Shown: positions 604 through 10,182 of the stretch, in pieces
Layout: the number at the start of each line of letters is the position of its first letter
Position numbering within the stretch: position 1 is the stretch's first letter
IMG/VR virus record: IMGVR_UViG_2711768053_000012
Coordinates: 1 to 12,001 of that record
Direction: 5' to 3' (one strand)
Source of the DNA: a virus
Lineage: Duplodnaviria; Heunggongvirae; Uroviricota; Caudoviricetes
DNA: 12,001 bases
The notes under the pieces: model-generated
The model's database searches: none
What the model saw: the letters and a program-made list of their open reading frames with translations, nothing else
Told to the model about the DNA's origin: nothing
Made by a program: the position numbers and the translations under genes

Positions 604-786
604 TCAGCGTCCTTTTTGCATCAGGCGTAAACGGGCCAGCATTGAAACAATGCATATTTGATTTAATAGCTCCCGTTCGTGTTTTCTCTTATTAATGGCA
701 TCTTCAGTAAATACAGGGTTACTGATTCTGACACCAATTTCAAAACAACCTTCAGACGTATTGACGTTTGGTAATAACGTTTCCAT
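604..786 (-). CDS. Hypothetical small early-left protein (60 aa)
   Basis: Track ORF with GAGGA Shine-Dalgarno 7 nt upstream of the ATG at 786 (minus strand); tightly packed with the next gene. No recognisable motif. Confidence 0.45.
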   Translation of the reverse strand: METLLPNVNTSEGCFEIGVRISNPVFTEDAINKRKHERELLNQICIVSMLARLRLMQKGR

Positions 787-803
787 TATCGCGTCCTCAA
801 CAA

Positions 804-967
804 TGAATTTTGTGATGCGGTGCCTGGTGCCTCCAGGTGACGTTAACCAGTTAACAATTAACGCCGGAATACAGGGAAACCAACTCCATAAAACAAATAC
901 GGAGTACCGATCACTTTTTTAACTGTTCCGCGTGCGCTGAGCCGCATTCACCGCATCACAAAATTCA
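804..967. repeat. Perfect 19-bp inverted repeat (TGAATTTTGTGATGCGGTG at 804-822, CACCGCATCACAAAATTCA at 949-967) flanking a 126-bp spacer
   Basis: Read directly from the sequence. Lies in a roughly 560-bp stretch (787-1345) with no convincing ORF on either strand. The spacer contains further palindromic elements (GTTAACCAGTTAAC, CCTGGTGCCTCCAGG). Confidence 0.8.
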
Positions 968-1354
968 CTTTAAAAAGGGCGGACATCAGCCAGCAATGAA
1001 ACTGATGCCGCCAAAAGGTAATCAACATGGGTTGTTGCAGCGGGGTTGTCACTCAGGCGTATGGTCAACCTGACAACCCGGTGTCCTCAACAGGGGGAAG
1101 GAATAACCCCGCCATACGTACCGCCGCGCCATTTCGCGGAGTGCCACAACCGGAAGCGCACGGTCGAATTAAATTTAACGACACCGTACAGTGAGACGAA
1201 CTTCGCCGTGCGCTTTCGCGTTATGCCCTGACTTTTCAGGGATATATCCTTTCAGTAAACTGTCAGTGCCGGATGCTCACCCGTGTCCGGCGCACGCACT
1301 CCACCTGACCCGCGGAGAACTCCTTAATTACCAACCCTCAGGAGGGTGAAATTT

Positions 1355-1546
1355 ATGACACAAGAAGAAAAAATAATGTTTCTTATGCGCCTGGCTGTGG
1401 AAACCTTTAACGCCCATTGCCAGGTGTCCATTTCACCATCTCACGCCATTTCTCTTGCTACCGAGCAAATGGGGGAGATTGACGTCATTTACGATAAATT
1501 TGAGGCATTCCTGGATAAGAAGCTTATGGCAGAGAAGCGTCAATAA
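1355..1546 (+). CDS. Hypothetical small protein (63 aa), plus-strand gene inside a leftward operon
   Basis: ATG at 1355 preceded by a consensus AGGAGG 9 nt upstream; the track start at 1346 is a GTG in the same frame. Product MTQEEKIMFLMRLAVETFNAHCQ... Its 3' end overlaps the 3' end of the convergent minus-strand gene 1524..2129 by 23 nt. Confidence 0.45.
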   Translation: MTQEEKIMFLMRLAVETFNAHCQVSISPSHAISLATEQMGEIDVIYDKFEAFLDKKLMAEKRQ

Positions 1547-2129
1547 TTCTCATTACCCATCGTAAATATACCGGAGTGGGCTTGACGTTGTGTTTTTCAA
1601 GCTCGCTCTTCATTACTTCCTGCAACTTTGAGCTGATAATAAACAAATCAGGTTTATCGTTATTATTTTTATCAGCATCGTCTTTTTTTGTTTTCGACTC
1701 TTGTGGTGAATGCTCGAAAGTAACTTGCAGGGTATTATTTTTAGCGTCCGCAGAGCCTAAAGTATGTGCATATGGATGTGCTATTGTGCGCCCCTGTAAA
1801 TTTGCATCGTTTTCTAAATCTTTTGATTTCAACAGAACATCAGCAAGACTCTGAATCATGCAGAGATAATCAAAAGCAGTTGCCGTTTCTGTTCTGATTG
1901 ATGAAAGAACATGGCCATTCACGCAAACAGAAATTACCCGTTCATTAACATCGCTTTCCTGCTTTTGATTATCAGAACCATATAACCCAGAAAAAGCATT
2001 GCGCACATTACGAACCATATTATCGATGGTTTCTTTTTTAGCGGATGCCGGGTCAATTTCCACCAGGCTATCACTGAGTGTCGTTGCAGCAATTGTCTGG
2101 ATTTCTTTTGGTAAATCTTTAAATTCCAT
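1524..2129 (-). CDS. Hypothetical protein (201 aa), AT-rich, hydrophilic
   Basis: Track ORF with GAGG Shine-Dalgarno 8 nt upstream of the ATG at 2129; follows the upstream gene (stop at 2152) after a 22-nt gap. Lys/Asp/Asn-rich; no recognised domain. Appears AT-richer than neighbours by eye. Confidence 0.6.
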   Translation of the reverse strand: MEFKDLPKEIQTIAATTLSDSLVEIDPASAKKETIDNMVRNVRNAFSGLYGSDNQKQESDVNERVISVCVNGHVLSSIRTETATAFDYLCMIQSLADVLLKSKDLENDANLQGRTIAHPYAHTLGSADAKNNTLQVTFEHSPQESKTKKDDADKNNNDKPDLFIISSKLQEVMKSELEKHNVKPTPVYLRWVMRIIDASLP

Positions 2130-2151: not shown

Positions 2152-2370
2152 TTAACGCGGGTATGTAATCATTCTGGCAACGCTTAATGCCGCTGCCTTT
2201 GTCAGACTGGCGATATCCTGCTCCAGAGCGGACAGATTTTCAGCCTGCTTAGCCCTGGCTTCATTGGCCCATTTCAGATCCTGCGCTGCATTAATTTTCT
2301 GGCGCATCCACTCATAAAGTTCATCATCGGTATAGTCTGGCGCGATGATGACGGGTTCTCGTTTCTGCAT
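2152..2370 (-). CDS. Hypothetical small phage protein (72 aa)
   Basis: Track ORF; same orientation and tight spacing with flanking leftward genes. Product MQKREPVIIAPDYTDDELYEWMRQKINAAQ... Confidence 0.55.
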   Translation of the reverse strand: MQKREPVIIAPDYTDDELYEWMRQKINAAQDLKWANEARAKQAENLSALEQDIASLTKAAALSVARMITYPR

Positions 2371-2530: not shown

Positions 2531-2686
2531 TCACTCACCTGAGTTTCTTTCCAGCCAGCGACGGGCACCATTTTCGGTTTTAAACGTTTTGCTTATGGTA
2601 TACGTCATCGCGGTGAATGTGCCGTCCTGGTTGGGAAACACGCCGTATACCAGAGATTCGTTGTTGCCAAGATCGATAGTATCCAT
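2531..2686 (-). CDS. ydaF: YdaF-like small protein (51 aa, DUF1391-like)
   Basis: Internal Met of track ORF 2531..2764 with GAGG Shine-Dalgarno 5 nt upstream. Product MDTIDLGNNESLVYGVFPNQDGTFTAMTYTISKTFKTENGARRWLERNSGE matches my recollection of Rac prophage YdaF. The 77-aa extended form is less likely. Confidence 0.6.
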   Translation of the reverse strand: MDTIDLGNNESLVYGVFPNQDGTFTAMTYTISKTFKTENGARRWLERNSGE

Positions 2687-2864
2687 GCTGACCTCATTTC
2701 CCCTTAACGCCGGGGTAGCGGAACAAAAACCTGCTGCATAGTTAAAGTTGAACCCTGCCGTCATGTTCTTACGCCTCGGGCTGGCTACTTAACCCCTGAC
2801 CACTGCCTGGTAACTCGAAGTATTGCCCTGCATTCTGTGGGGCGGGGTGGGTTGGTATGCAATA

Positions 2865-2893
2865 AATCTAAAAGTATTTAGTTTTATAGTCAA
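2865..2893 (-). promoter_or_regulatory. pL-like leftward promoter with overlapping operator palindrome
   Basis: On the minus strand: -35 TTGACT (plus 2888-2893), 17-nt spacer, -10 TAGATT (plus 2865-2870). Overlaps the imperfect palindrome AATCTAA-AAGTAT-TTAGTTT at 2865-2884, which has the same 7-6-7 architecture as sites next to the cro-like gene. Confidence 0.45.
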
Positions 2894-2959: not shown

Positions 2960-3607
2960 TTATAGGTTGAACTGTACACCTTTTGCTACGGCAACAATTT
3001 TACACTCTGGCGTAAGCAAGGATGATTGATAGCGCGGATTGAGAGGGCTTAAATACACAAGTTTTCCATCAATAACTAATTTTTTTATAGTCATAGACGG
3101 TTCATTTGTAAGAGGATCTGGAACTATTACAGCGACGATACTGCCATTTTTATAACTTTCTCCTGGTCTTAGGATCACAGTGGCACCAACTGGGATACTT
3201 GGCGACCCTGAGGGGTTATGCATAGTGTCATCAGGCATTGAAACGGCAAAATCACCTTCCACTACATCAAAGAATGTGGTGATCCTATCGACATTTCCCA
3301 TTGTTTTCTCTCCTTCTAAGATTAGGAAAGAAATCGCGTCACCCCACGAAAAGTAGGGGATCTTGGTGCCTGGATTGCTCTGCACAAAAGATAGTTCAGG
3401 AGACGATACTCCATACAGGAGATAGGACTCAGTAGTTCCTAATGCTTGGGCTAACTTACTTAGAGCTTTGCTGCCGGGTTCGTTTAGATCTTTCTCCCAG
3501 TACCCTATAGTAACCCCAGTCACGCCTGAAAGCTTACCCAGTTCTACTTGGGTGAGTCCCTTATCTTTTCTGAGTTTCTTAAGCCTGATGCCAAGGCTTT
3601 CCATCAT
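2960..3607 (-). CDS. CI-like prophage repressor (N-terminal HTH_XRE, C-terminal S24 LexA-type self-cleaving peptidase)
   Basis: 215 aa. N-terminal HTH (LTQVELGKLSGVTGVTIGYWE). C-terminal S24 signatures: Ser in AVSMPD and Lys in IKKLVIDGKLVYLSPLNPRYQ, the latter closely resembling lambda CI [27 protein letters not shown] Shine-Dalgarno upstream of the ATG at 3607. Divergent from the cro-like gene. Confidence 0.9.
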   Translation of the reverse strand: MMESLGIRLKKLRKDKGLTQVELGKLSGVTGVTIGYWEKDLNEPGSKALSKLAQALGTTESYLLYGVSSPELSFVQSNPGTKIPYFSWGDAISFLILEGEKTMGNVDRITTFFDVVEGDFAVSMPDDTMHNPSGSPSIPVGATVILRPGESYKNGSIVAVIVPDPLTNEPSMTIKKLVIDGKLVYLSPLNPRYQSSLLTPECKIVAVAKGVQFNL

Positions 3608-7916: not shown

Positions 7917-8127
7917 AAACGGTTTGCGGGAAAAGGAGAGTTAAGTAGAATTGCTGCGGGTGCTTGAGGCTATCTGCCTCAGGCATGAACACCAAAAGGC
8001 AGATAGAGAAAAGCCCCAGTTAACATTACGCGTCCTGCAAGACGCTTAACATTAATCTGAGGCCCAATCTATGTCTCACAAATGTAGGTTAGCCTCTTAC
8101 GTGCCGAAAGGCAAGGAGAAGCAGGCT

Positions 8128-8283
8128 ATGAAGCAGCAAAAGGCGATGTTAATCGCCCTGATCGTCATCTGTTTAACCGTCATAGTGACGGCACTGGTAA
8201 CGAGGAAAGACCTCTGCGAGGTACGAATCCGAACCGGCCAGACGGAGGTCGCTGTCTTCACAGCTTACGAACCTGAGGAGTAA
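8128..8283 (+). CDS. hokD: Hok/Gef family type I toxin (51 aa)
   Basis: Product MKQQKAMLIALIVICLTVIVTALVTRKDLCEVRIRTGQTEVAVFTAYEPEE matches my recollection of E. coli HokD (RelF) and aligns closely with Gef/Hok. AAGGAGA Shine-Dalgarno 8 nt upstream of the ATG at 8128. The track ORF starts at an upstream in-frame ATG (8071) giving 70 aa. The upstream leader is highly structured and a terminator follows. Confidence 0.85.
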   Translation: MKQQKAMLIALIVICLTVIVTALVTRKDLCEVRIRTGQTEVAVFTAYEPEE

Positions 8284-8376: not shown

Positions 8377-8421
8377 GGTTGACAAAATTATGAATATGCA
8401 CCAATATCTTGGTTGACAAAA
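8375..8421 (+). promoter_or_regulatory. Tandem 13-bp direct repeats TTGGTTGACAAAA (8375-8387 and 8409-8421) containing a consensus -35 TTGACA; candidate promoter/operator of the cassette
   Basis: Read from the sequence; repeats are 34 bp apart. The first TTGACA (8379-8384) with a 17-nt spacer gives a weak -10 CAATAT (8402-8407), placing the second repeat near the predicted transcription start. Confidence 0.45.
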
Positions 8422-8456
8422 GTCGTTTTTTGCACGGATTAGGCGGAGAAGTGTCT

Positions 8457-9050
8457 ATGCAGAAGCATCCATTCCCTTGGGAGTTCTTTCCTGAGTTAAC
8501 AGAGGATCGTTTAACCATTATAGCTGAGGAGTTGCTCAGGATACAGGATATTACTCATGAGTTATTGTCATCGCCCTATGATGATAATTACACTCGTGGT
8601 GGTTGTACATTTGGGCGTCAGCGGCAGGCGTTGCTACAAATGTGCATACGAAAGACATATGACTGGTTAAGACTACTTAATCCTGGCATGGATCTTACGT
8701 TTTCAATTGGGAATGTCCCTATTCGTTTCTTTACTGATGACGCAGATAACCCCAAGAAACGCGGTTTTTTCAAAAGAAATGATGCTGATCGACTCTTTGA
8801 GTCAGAGGAGACCACTCCAACTATGCATCGCTTTGTGGTTGAAAAGCCTGAATTTGAAGGCGAGGGTGGTAGAGTCATTTTTAATGGCTATAACGTGTTT
8901 GGTGAGATCGTGTCAACTTGGACATATGGTGCGGACCGTGTTGTTATGCTGAACTCTGTCGATGATGTACCTCCAGCACCGGTACCTATCGAACTAGAAC
9001 CTATCAGTGCGTCTAAGACTGAGAAGGAAAAGAAACAAAATAGCAAATAG
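8457..9050 (+). CDS. Hypothetical protein, first gene of the cassette (197 aa from ATG 8457; 213 aa if ATG 8409 is used)
   Basis: Track ORF 8409..9050. I prefer the in-frame ATG at 8457 (GGAG about 10 nt upstream) because the 8409 ATG lies inside the direct-repeat/-35 element. No recognisable catalytic motif; acidic Pro-rich C-terminus and Lys-rich tail. AT-richer than the flanks by eye. Confidence 0.6.
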   Translation: MQKHPFPWEFFPELTEDRLTIIAEELLRIQDITHELLSSPYDDNYTRGGCTFGRQRQALLQMCIRKTYDWLRLLNPGMDLTFSIGNVPIRFFTDDADNPKKRGFFKRNDADRLFESEETTPTMHRFVVEKPEFEGEGGRVIFNGYNVFGEIVSTWTYGADRVVMLNSVDDVPPAPVPIELEPISASKTEKEKKQNSK

Positions 9051-9060
9051 TGGGTGAAAT

Positions 9061-10182
9061 GTGTTTAACGGTACTAATTTAAGACTTGCTCGTCTGTATC
9101 ACGAGCTATCTCTGGAGCAGGTTGCTGAGAAGGTTGAAAAAACACGCCAGTATGTACAGCGACTGGAGTCTGGTTCAGCTACTCCATCCCCAGAGCTTAT
9201 AAATAAATTAGCCGAGGTTTTGCGCGTGAAGCCCGCCTTTTTCGAAGGGCAGGAACATTCTCCTGTTAATGAAGAGATTGTACATTTTCGTAAACGCGCC
9301 TCGACAAGGATGTCAACGAAGCTATCAACACTCGCTAAGGCTGAGTTTTATCGTCGTTTTATTGATGTATTTGAAGATAACCTTAATTTGTCACCTGTTC
9401 GATTTCCTGAATTTCGTGTCCATACACAAGAAGATATCGAGCGAGCGGCAGAAAAATGTCGTATTGAGTGGGGCTTAGGCTTTGGCCCAATTGAAAATAT
9501 GACTCGCCTTGCCGAGAAACTTGGGGCGTTTGTTACTTCATTTGACTCCGTTTCGGATGAAGTAGATGCACTGTCTGTTCCTCTACGAAGGCCTTTTATT
9601 GTTCGAAATACAGCTAAAAATTCACCTTGTAGGCAACGCTTTGATATTGCTCATGAGGTTGCCCATTTGATTCTTCATGAAGGAATTTCTACTGGGGATA
9701 GATTAACTGAATCCCAGGCAAACCGCTTTGCCTCTGCTCTGTTGCTTCCCAGAACGTCGATGGCGAAATATTTTCCAAGACCTGTGGGGGGGAGGATAAA
9801 TTGGCAGGGACTAAGCCAATTTAAGTTGACATGGAAAGTAAGTAAGGCTGCCATTGTTTACAGGGCTCATCAATTAGGACTTTTGACTGATGAGCAGTAC
9901 AGAACTGCATTTATGGGGTTGAAACGGAAAGGGGAAGCTATTGATGAAAAAGAAGATTATCTAATCCCTCATGAGCGTCCTGAGTTATTCCGTCGGGCTT
10001 TATCGTTTTTATTTGAAGAGTTAGGATACGACCCACAGCGTATAGCTGATGAAATGGATATAGAAGTGGACATTTTTTATGAGTTAGTAGGAGATGATCT
10101 TCCTGCGGTTCATGAACTGCCAGGAAGTGGTGATGTTGTTTCACTACAATCTTACCGAACTCTTAGAGGCAAAATTCACTAG
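9061..10182 (+). CDS. Fused HTH_XRE DNA-binding domain plus ImmA/IrrE-family (DUF955/COG2856-type) HExxH zinc metallopeptidase, 373 aa
   Basis: GTG start at 9061, first start after an in-frame stop and 10 nt after the upstream gene's stop. N-terminal HTH (LSLEQVAEKVEKTRQYVQRLESGSATPSPELINKLAEVLRV); HEVAH (HExxH) at about 9652-9666 inside FDIAHEVAHLILHE, typical of ImmA/IrrE peptidases; about 120-aa C-terminal extension. A terminator follows immediately. Confidence 0.8.
   Translation: MFNGTNLRLARLYHELSLEQVAEKVEKTRQYVQRLESGSATPSPELINKLAEVLRVKPAFFEGQEHSPVNEEIVHFRKRASTRMSTKLSTLAKAEFYRRFIDVFEDNLNLSPVRFPEFRVHTQEDIERAAEKCRIEWGLGFGPIENMTRLAEKLGAFVTSFDSVSDEVDALSVPLRRPFIVRNTAKNSPCRQRFDIAHEVAHLILHEGISTGDRLTESQANRFASALLLPRTSMAKYFPRPVGGRINWQGLSQFKLTWKVSKAAIVYRAHQLGLLTDEQYRTAFMGLKRKGEAIDEKEDYLIPHERPELFRRALSFLFEELGYDPQRIADEMDIEVDIFYELVGDDLPAVHELPGSGDVVSLQSYRTLRGKIH

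Follow-up and report, generated by a model that had tools for sequence, protein, structure and literature searches.

A Reverse-Oriented Small Gene of a Qin/dic-Type Prophage and Its Convergent Partner Domain: A Tentative Antagonistic Pair in a Hypervariable Slot

Organization of the Locus

The window (the whole stretch of 12,001 nucleotides of phage DNA analyzed here) comes from a lambdoid prophage of the Qin/dic type and covers its immunity and early-left region. Reading leftward, a CI-like repressor gene is followed by a PL-like promoter match, ydfA, a ydfB-like ORF, ydfC, a gene for a 201-aa protein, the dicF leader, a DicF-like sRNA, dicB, and ydfD (Table 1). On the other strand lies a small gene, here termed gene A, which runs from the ATG at 1355 to the TAA ending at 1546 and comprises 63 codons and a stop. 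As a preliminary description of this DNA had stated, the ORF is embedded in the leftward operon and converges on the 201-aa gene, with overlapping 3′ ends. It is flanked by the 201-aa gene and by dicF/dicB, and the overlap measures 23 nt (1524-1546).

Table 1. Features of the gene A locus, in window coordinates.
Feature	Position	Strand	Basis
Gene A; 63-aa protein with two predicted helices, phrog_2605	1355-1546	+	ORF list
Translation start region of gene A, CTCAGGAGGGTGAAATTT; on the cassette side	1337-1354	+	Read from the sequence
Best candidate, a weak one, for a gene A promoter, TTTTCA-17-TAAACT	1233-1261	+	8/12 consensus matches, own scan
Possible anti-SD/SD stem, CTCCT (1320-1324) with AGGAG (1340-1344)	1320-1345	+	
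CI-like repressor	2960-3607	-	HTH_3 and Peptidase_S24 match
Terminator of the repressor gene	2938-2918	-	Terminator/promoter scan
PL-like promoter (TTGACT-17-TAGATT) for the leftward operon	2865-2893	-	Scan match, downstream of both the CI-like repressor gene and the terminator of that gene
ydfA/DUF1391	2531-2764	-	
ydfB-like ORF	between ydfA/DUF1391 and ydfC	-	
ydfC	2152-2370	-	
201-aa ORF	1524-2129	-	
Domain B, residues 160-201 of the 201-aa gene, PDLFIISSKLQEVMKSELEKHNVKPTPVYLRWVMRIIDASLP	1527-1652	-	Conserved partner of gene A
dicF leader, untranslated part (~310 nt) of the leftward operon; abuts the cassette	1028-1336	-	Near-identical to the K-12 ydfC-dicF spacer
DicF-like sRNA and terminator hairpin	977-1027	-	Rfam RF00039; terminator match 1009-982
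dicB	604-786	-	
ydfD/DUF1482	beyond dicB, reading leftward	-	

The operon to which the dicF leader belongs has been described previously (PMC5069750). The DicF-like sRNA scored 34.1 bits (E = 2.8e-5) against a gathering score of 48 for Rfam RF00039; its 5′ half has diverged, and its terminator hairpin and position agree with DicF. After this sRNA and upstream of dicB, a sub-threshold STnc100-like element was seen at 809-965 (-), and other prophages have the same tandem of DicF and an STnc100-like element upstream of their kilR genes. Within the GC-rich dicF leader of one genome (L009, 391-672, +), PGAP places a 93-aa “hypothetical protein” on the plus strand. This call is probably spurious, as the corresponding frame of the window (about 1029-1310) is split into ORFs of 52-61 aa.

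Expression Signals of Gene A

Gene A was said earlier to carry a perfect AGGAGG at ideal spacing. The motif is present at 1340-1345; the spacing is less favorable than described, since the spacer to the ATG (GTGAAATTT) measures 9 nt, toward the upper limit of workable lengths. A GTG that lies in frame at 1346 is unlikely to serve as the start because it abuts the Shine-Dalgarno (SD) sequence.

A standard sigma-70 scan of the window found nothing upstream of gene A at 9/12 or better. The candidate listed in Table 1 ends 94 nt before the ATG, and its site is conserved, with TGgTAAACT in locus L014; because the site lies within the conserved leader, this conservation is uninformative. Another promoter-like match, at 761-789 (+), falls within dicB codons and was judged to be due to chance. 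A stem in the 5′ UTR that would sequester the SD sequence is suggested by one compensatory variant of the anti-SD/SD pairing, again in L014 (CCCCT..AGGGG). The recurrent stems around the SD sequence show one or two compensatory changes, and in some variants the pairing is better on the minus strand, through G-U pairs, than on the plus strand. The folding z-scores (-2.1 to +0.8) are not significant, so the stem is a tentative candidate.

A Hypervariable Slot Behind Two Leaders

Escherichia coli K-12 has neither gene A nor the 201-aa gene: there, ydfC lies directly against the leader, and the resemblance to the window stops at 1336. “Empty” loci of the K-12 type diverge exactly after the CCAACC that ends at this position. 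When the leader end (CACCCGYGGAGAACTCCT) was used for a scan, 118 stretches were returned, about 84 of them empty and K-12-like. In the remaining stretches with a dicF-type leader, CCAACC is followed by CTCAGGAGGGTGA(A)-ATG and then by differing ORFs of at least four families, namely phrog_10348 (n = 13), gene A (n = 8), a 91-aa family (n = 9), and a 73/74-aa family (n = 3). Each of these cargos converges, with an overlap of 11-32 nt, on a gene beginning with MEFKDLP, the C-terminal part of which varies with the cargo.

A second type of leader precedes gene A in SfII, EPP-1, and prophages of Klebsiella and Salmonella. It has the form GCCTGTCTTTTCACCACATCAGGCTCGGTGGTATCTTGG-N13-CCAAGAAGGA-N8-ATG and is nearly invariant, though the A proteins encoded behind it share only 40-50% identity. 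Its exact 21-mer TCAGGCTCGGTGGTATCTTGG occurs 81 times in IMG/VR, and at least ten unrelated ORF families follow it, always 28-33 nt on and in the same orientation (leader and cargo loci: IMG/VR L109-L188 and L199-L318; window 1296-1354). This fixed distance between leader and ORF argues for the second leader as a plus-strand expression signal. An extended -10 element, TGnTAnnnT, is invariant in 20 variants of the second leader, 33-36 nt before the ATG; the window and the dicF-leader group have no extended -10 of this kind. The leader variant of L106 (TGATACCCT ... CCAGGA) retains the TG, the TA, and the final T of the putative element and carries a compensatory T-A to C-G change in the flanking inverted repeat. 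Neither type of leader next to gene A is covered by an Rfam family, and a literature search on antisense transcription at dicF found nothing specific.

The slot of gene A is a hypervariable accessory-gene slot. Ten alternative cargos gave matches only to PHROGs of unknown function in searches of Pfam, NCBIfam, PADLOC, and PHROGs, and one cargo family of the same slot, of 148 aa, has no convergent partner.

The Gene A Family and Its Selection

Gene A matches phrog_2605, a PHROG of unknown function that comprises a small family from temperate phages of Enterobacterales (E = 2.8e-22, residues 1-59 against profile positions 1-59 of 69; a 69-aa relative matches with E = 2.8e-44). A word-indexed search of 5.8e9 proteins placed the family in 20 clusters, and an exhaustive HMM search of 1.84e9 proteins retrieved 18 representatives; the motif of the family is MTxEEKVMFLMRLAVxTxN ... 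IYxKFExFLDKKL. Members are present in viable phages, including SfII (SfII_36), Edwardsiella phage EPP-1, phiSTEC1589-Stx1c, and PhiR5_2, and among RefSeq entries (WP_001297794, WP_052931385, WP_001678557, and WP_000189937). The ORF itself is not new, since its family has already been catalogued as a hypothetical protein; the PHROG, RefSeq, and SfII_36 entries give no function, partner, or context.

The preliminary description had suggested looking for conservation and codon-level selection among related prophages, and both were found. An intact frame was seen at 103 loci, and the 38 unique DNA sequences among them give a pN/pS of 0.33. Between L017 and L019, 25 differences fall on 40.5 synonymous sites and 10 on 148.5 non-synonymous sites (dN/dS 0.05, NG86), and deeper pairs give a dN/dS of 0.24-0.38 by the same method. 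In the first 20 codons, which are nearly invariant, variable sites are distributed 6/3/13 over the three codon positions. Eight complete E. coli genomes have this allele, and PGAP annotates gene A as a “hypothetical protein” in seven of them; the eighth copy is frameshifted, and frameshifts also occur in several database variants.

A chance frame lying antisense to the dicF-operon transcript, and kept only through conservation of the RNA on the opposite strand, could account for the position of the ORF beside a highly conserved non-coding leader, the occurrence of the allele in just 8 of 5426 complete E. coli genomes, and the existence of frameshifted copies. Set against this are the saturation of synonymous sites while the protein is kept, the third-position wobble pattern, the large number of loci with an intact frame, and the end of the conserved leader at 1336, before gene A begins. 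A chance ORF was rejected on the basis of this codon-level selection and is extremely improbable; that gene A is a real protein gene is almost certain.

Direct reading of the gene A protein shows an acidic net charge and no hydrophobic stretch. AlphaFold2 (AF2) models helices at residues 3-23 and 28-62 (pLDDT 77, pTM 0.33), and the product is predicted to be an acidic, two-helix cytoplasmic protein. No match was found in Pfam (E ≤ 0.1), NCBIfam, or PADLOC, nor in the PDB, whether by sequence profile or by Foldseek. A relationship to the Rop/Rom RNA-binding hairpin was considered on account of the 63-aa length and the MTxxEK start, and was rejected: BLASTP gave an E value of 0.20 over 11 residues only, and Pfam, PDB-profile, and Foldseek searches likewise lent the Rop reading no support. 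Searching the literature by protein accession and PHROG identifier found no paper on gene A.

Correspondence to the sieB Position

The left half of the second leader is identical at 33 of 35 nt to lambda 34394-34428 and to P22-like phages. In lambda, this block lies just upstream of a reverse-oriented ORF (34482-35036) that abuts the N stop and that we take to be sieB; the same position is annotated as sieB in the P22-like phage UAB_Phi20. Because the leader of its relatives matches the block upstream of a reverse-oriented sieB, gene A appears to sit in the sieB slot of lambda and P22. A block of the sieB type is not recognizable in the window itself, the leader of which is of the dicF type.

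According to two reports, the P22 sieB locus encodes an exclusion protein and its inhibitor Esc, with the sas antisense RNA switching between them (Ranade and Poteete, 1993, as cited in PMC12197685 and PMC7067206). The paradigm is an exclusion factor coupled to a self-immunity determinant that needs PL transcription (PMC12197685; PMC7067206). Like gene A, the sieB gene lies inside the PL operon, opposite to it, and converges on an early-left gene. The two systems differ in their products, as SieB is a membrane protein of 184-192 aa that aborts superinfecting phage and the 63-aa product of gene A has no hydrophobic segment and an unrelated sequence; they differ also in the source of the antagonist, which is an in-frame internal product in P22 and would be a separate opposite-strand gene in the case of gene A. 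Pfam (E ≤ 0.1) and NCBIfam gave no homology of gene A to SieB, and among the five records matched by tblastn in 50,697 phage records there was no sieB gene.

Gene A belongs to a known sort, that of reverse-oriented prophage accessory genes in the sieB position. The earlier suggestion of a lysogen-expressed accessory gene of the exclusion-factor type is partly supported: gene A is a real gene, oriented against the early-left operon, in a swap-prone slot. Its protein is unrelated to SieB, a third of the size, and devoid of a hydrophobic segment.

The Chimeric 201-aa Gene

According to PHROG assignment by segment and alignments, the 201-aa gene is made up of three parts: a phrog_1363-like part (residues 1-128), a low-complexity linker, and a C-terminal domain, here termed domain B. 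The first part includes the MEFKDLP N-domain, which is common to many families. The gene is AT-rich, as previously noted, with 37-42% GC compared with 55% in the neighboring leader. Its phrog_1363-like N-terminal half occurs in about 980 E. coli genomes, and the complete module (1337-2135) in 8 of the 5426 complete ones. The chimera carries the partner part of the phrog_10348 cargo, which the window itself lacks.

In all eight E. coli genomes (L003-L010), PGAP labels the 201-aa gene a pseudogene with a “missing C-terminus.” This label is probably wrong, because the frame is intact in every copy seen (9 of 9 genomes) and selection is evident along all parts (pN/pS 0.1-0.5 in each). What PGAP took for a truncation is a fusion of domains in frame.

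A Conserved Partner Domain for Gene A

Domain B, of about 45 aa, has the motif PDLxIISSxxLxxLKSELxxxGVKPTPxxLRWVMxxIxxSLP and is found on the converging gene in 101 of the 103 loci with an intact gene A. The pair spans phages of E. coli, Shigella, Edwardsiella, Klebsiella, Salmonella, and Kluyvera, with a 3′ overlap of 23-39 nt in all A-B loci examined. The domain is mostly free-standing, in proteins of 56-71 aa (45 clusters from Klebsiella, Salmonella, Kluyvera, and E. coli), and look-ups that started from B found gene A converging on it in four of four cases (Klebsiella, Salmonella, Kluyvera, and one further genome). Domain B is under purifying selection, with a pN/pS of about 0.3. AF2 models it confidently as a helix-loop-helix of two helices (core pLDDT > 90), for which no significant structural neighbor or fold match was found; searches of Pfam, NCBIfam, PADLOC, and PHROGs linked B to nothing beyond PHROGs of unknown function.

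The 201-aa gene had been put forward, along with gene A, as a candidate for a host-benefit function. It is not a second, independent gene of the lysogen: it shares the orientation of the repressed leftward operon, and the last ~42 aa that it encodes are the partner domain of A. In SfII, the partner gene is unannotated; it encodes 68 aa (L020 3654-3860, -, corresponding to KC736978 about 28147-28353) and overlaps SfII_36 by 39 nt.

In a Salmonella prophage (L106 2501-2848; Logan ERR1840417_93), A and B lie between the head-tail joining genes and the tail tube gene, with B co-oriented with the late genes, A opposite, and the internal arrangement kept. The pair therefore moves as a unit. Recombinants are also found in which B stays with A while the N-terminal part is exchanged. 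Each partner can nevertheless occur alone: L066 and L067 have gene A, with its own terminator, and no B, and in the Shigella Stx phages 75/02 and POCJ13 a deletion of ~300 bp took the dicF-type leader together with the 5′ half of A and left B in place. Neither partner is thus essential to the other or to viability. The 75/02 locus (L023, about 2595-2960) retains a 43-codon remnant of A and a DicF-like hairpin. A type II toxin-antitoxin module was rejected because the genes are convergent and not co-directional and because orphan A and orphan B both exist.

Together, A and B probably form a functional pair, and linkage alone could also produce their adjacency. On the latter footing, A would be, as first proposed, a stand-alone exclusion or host-benefit factor expressed in the lysogen and the converging gene a chance neighbor. 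Such a reading would suit the orientation of A against the leftward operon in the sieB position, its solitary occurrence with its own terminator in L066 and L067, and the 148-aa cargo family that lacks a convergent partner. It is distinctly unlikely in view of the recurrence of B beside A across the hosts listed above and in two different genome regions, the matching partners of the other cargos, and, from direct reading of the sequence, the lack of a membrane segment in A, unlike SieB and most exclusion proteins.

The same pairing bears on a role in anti-defense, in which A would be a small acidic inhibitor of host immunity housed in a diversifying counter-defense slot. Its small size, acidity, and helical character would fit, as would a hypervariable slot in which a conserved leader is followed by numerous small ORFans. 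Such a role would leave the strict pairing with B unaccounted for, A runs opposite to the early operon, from which anti-defense proteins would normally be delivered at infection, and searches of Pfam and PADLOC gave no similarity to known families; this possibility is very unlikely.

Comparison With Nested and Convergent Phage Modules

Noncontiguous operons offer an architectural parallel. In TaiEcA/AtiEcA of phi80 (PMC11364771) and Tha/Ith of the Staphylococcus aureus prophage 80alpha (PMC11087260), a gene with a promoter of its own lies antisense inside the phage operon for its cognate antagonist, and the two are expressed reciprocally between lysogeny and lytic growth. Gene A, nested on the opposite strand between the 201-aa gene and dicF/dicB, has the orientation that defines such operons and, as in these systems, the pair travels together. 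TaiEcA (26 kDa) and Tha (a HEPN RNase) are unrelated and much larger, whereas A and B are predicted helical hairpins of ~45-65 aa that overlap at their 3′ ends. PADLOC, Pfam, and PHROG searches revealed no link of gene A to Tai, Ati, Tha, or Ith.

Operons for pore-forming colicins combine an SOS-controlled toxin gene with a constitutive immunity gene on the opposite strand and a lysis gene downstream. The window has in common with them a repressed, SOS-inducible operon, a small opposite-strand gene after a gene with a variable C-terminus, and, further downstream, the division-inhibition and lysis genes dicB and ydfD. The likeness is architectural only; homology is lacking, and the immunity proteins of colicins are membrane proteins.

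A Tentative Model and the Question of Polarity

The best overall explanation, a tentative one that falls somewhat short of an even chance, takes A and B as cognate antagonists in a noncontiguous operon, with A made in the lysogen and B on induction. Gene A and domain B constitute a mobile two-gene cassette, B being fused in the window to the 201-aa gene of an SOS-inducible operon of the PL type. In the lysogen, the leftward operon is repressed; hence, A would be the sole product and would act as an effector of the accessory or exclusion type. Upon induction, leftward transcription would yield B, which would neutralize A, probably via a helical heterocomplex. B is co-oriented with the repressor-controlled lytic operon, the transcript of which must cross A in antisense. 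Because this transcript would cover the whole of A in antisense, collision or duplex RNA may also silence A.

The polarity of the pair, with A as the effector and B as the antidote, is tentative too and is held with slightly less assurance. It is mildly favored because B persists without A in the viable phages 75/02 and POCJ13, because the window chimera tolerates an orphan phrog_1363 part (the partner part of phrog_10348) without harm, and because the reversed gene is the effector in the sieB and Tai precedents.

The polarity may instead be reversed, with B as a harmful effector encoded in the lytic operon (e.g., a small host-takeover inhibitor) and A as a constitutive immunity or antidote protein. 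Polymorphic toxin-immunity modules typically have a shared N-domain and a variable C-terminus that co-varies with a small downstream gene; the MEFKDLP N-domain is likewise shared, and the variable C-terminus attached to it co-varies with the small gene that follows on the opposite strand. The layout also recalls the pore-forming colicin operons, and the orphan A of L066 and L067 would become an orphan immunity gene. Moreover, the small antisense gene of the 80alpha noncontiguous operon, Tha/Ith, is the inhibitor (PMC11087260). This arrangement is considered rather unlikely, and it is still a rival to be taken seriously.

If A acts as the effector and B as its antidote, as preferred here, the pair would be a minimal module of two small proteins among the prophage systems that shield lysogens while sparing their own phage. 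It is possible, and on balance doubtful, that the ORF belongs to a wider, hitherto undescribed class of convergent, 3′-overlapping pairs of tiny proteins that act as lysogeny-coupled immunity/counter-immunity switches and are swapped in lambdoid prophages as cassettes behind a conserved leader of the sieB or dicF type. In such a class, each cargo of 57-94 aa would have a matched partner of ~45-65 aa, either free or fused to the MEFKDLP N-domain. The slot would then be a ready catalogue of a dozen or more phage-phage conflict systems, and the conserved leaders, if the proposal is true, would be a sequence handle for finding more unannotated cargos in Enterobacterales prophages.

Four aspects appear to be undescribed so far: the seemingly obligate partner domain, the cassette behavior, the two leaders with a dozen cargos, and the homology of one leader to the sequence upstream of sieB. 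No paper on these points was found when the literature was searched by protein accession, PHROG identifier, and related topics. For annotation, the 201-aa “pseudogene” is corrected to an intact gene under selection, and a partner gene missing from the annotation of SfII is supplied. For work on dicBF, the “long untranslated region” upstream of dicF is seen to border a variable slot for reverse-oriented genes, the cargo of which is absent in K-12.

Other Accessory Genes in the Window

Two further loci of the window may be recorded. A full-length hok/sok type I toxin-antitoxin locus is present at 7958-8133 (+) and 8071-8283 (+), with a sok match of 121.7 bits (RF01794) and a Hok/Gef ORF (PF01848, E = 3e-23). 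A 213-aa ORF with no Pfam match (8409-9050, +) is followed by a gene for a 373-aa protein with HTH_3 and Peptidase_M78 (ImmA/IrrE-like) domains (9061-10182, +); this pair of genes lies in the replication/nin-like region and resembles a further accessory insertion.
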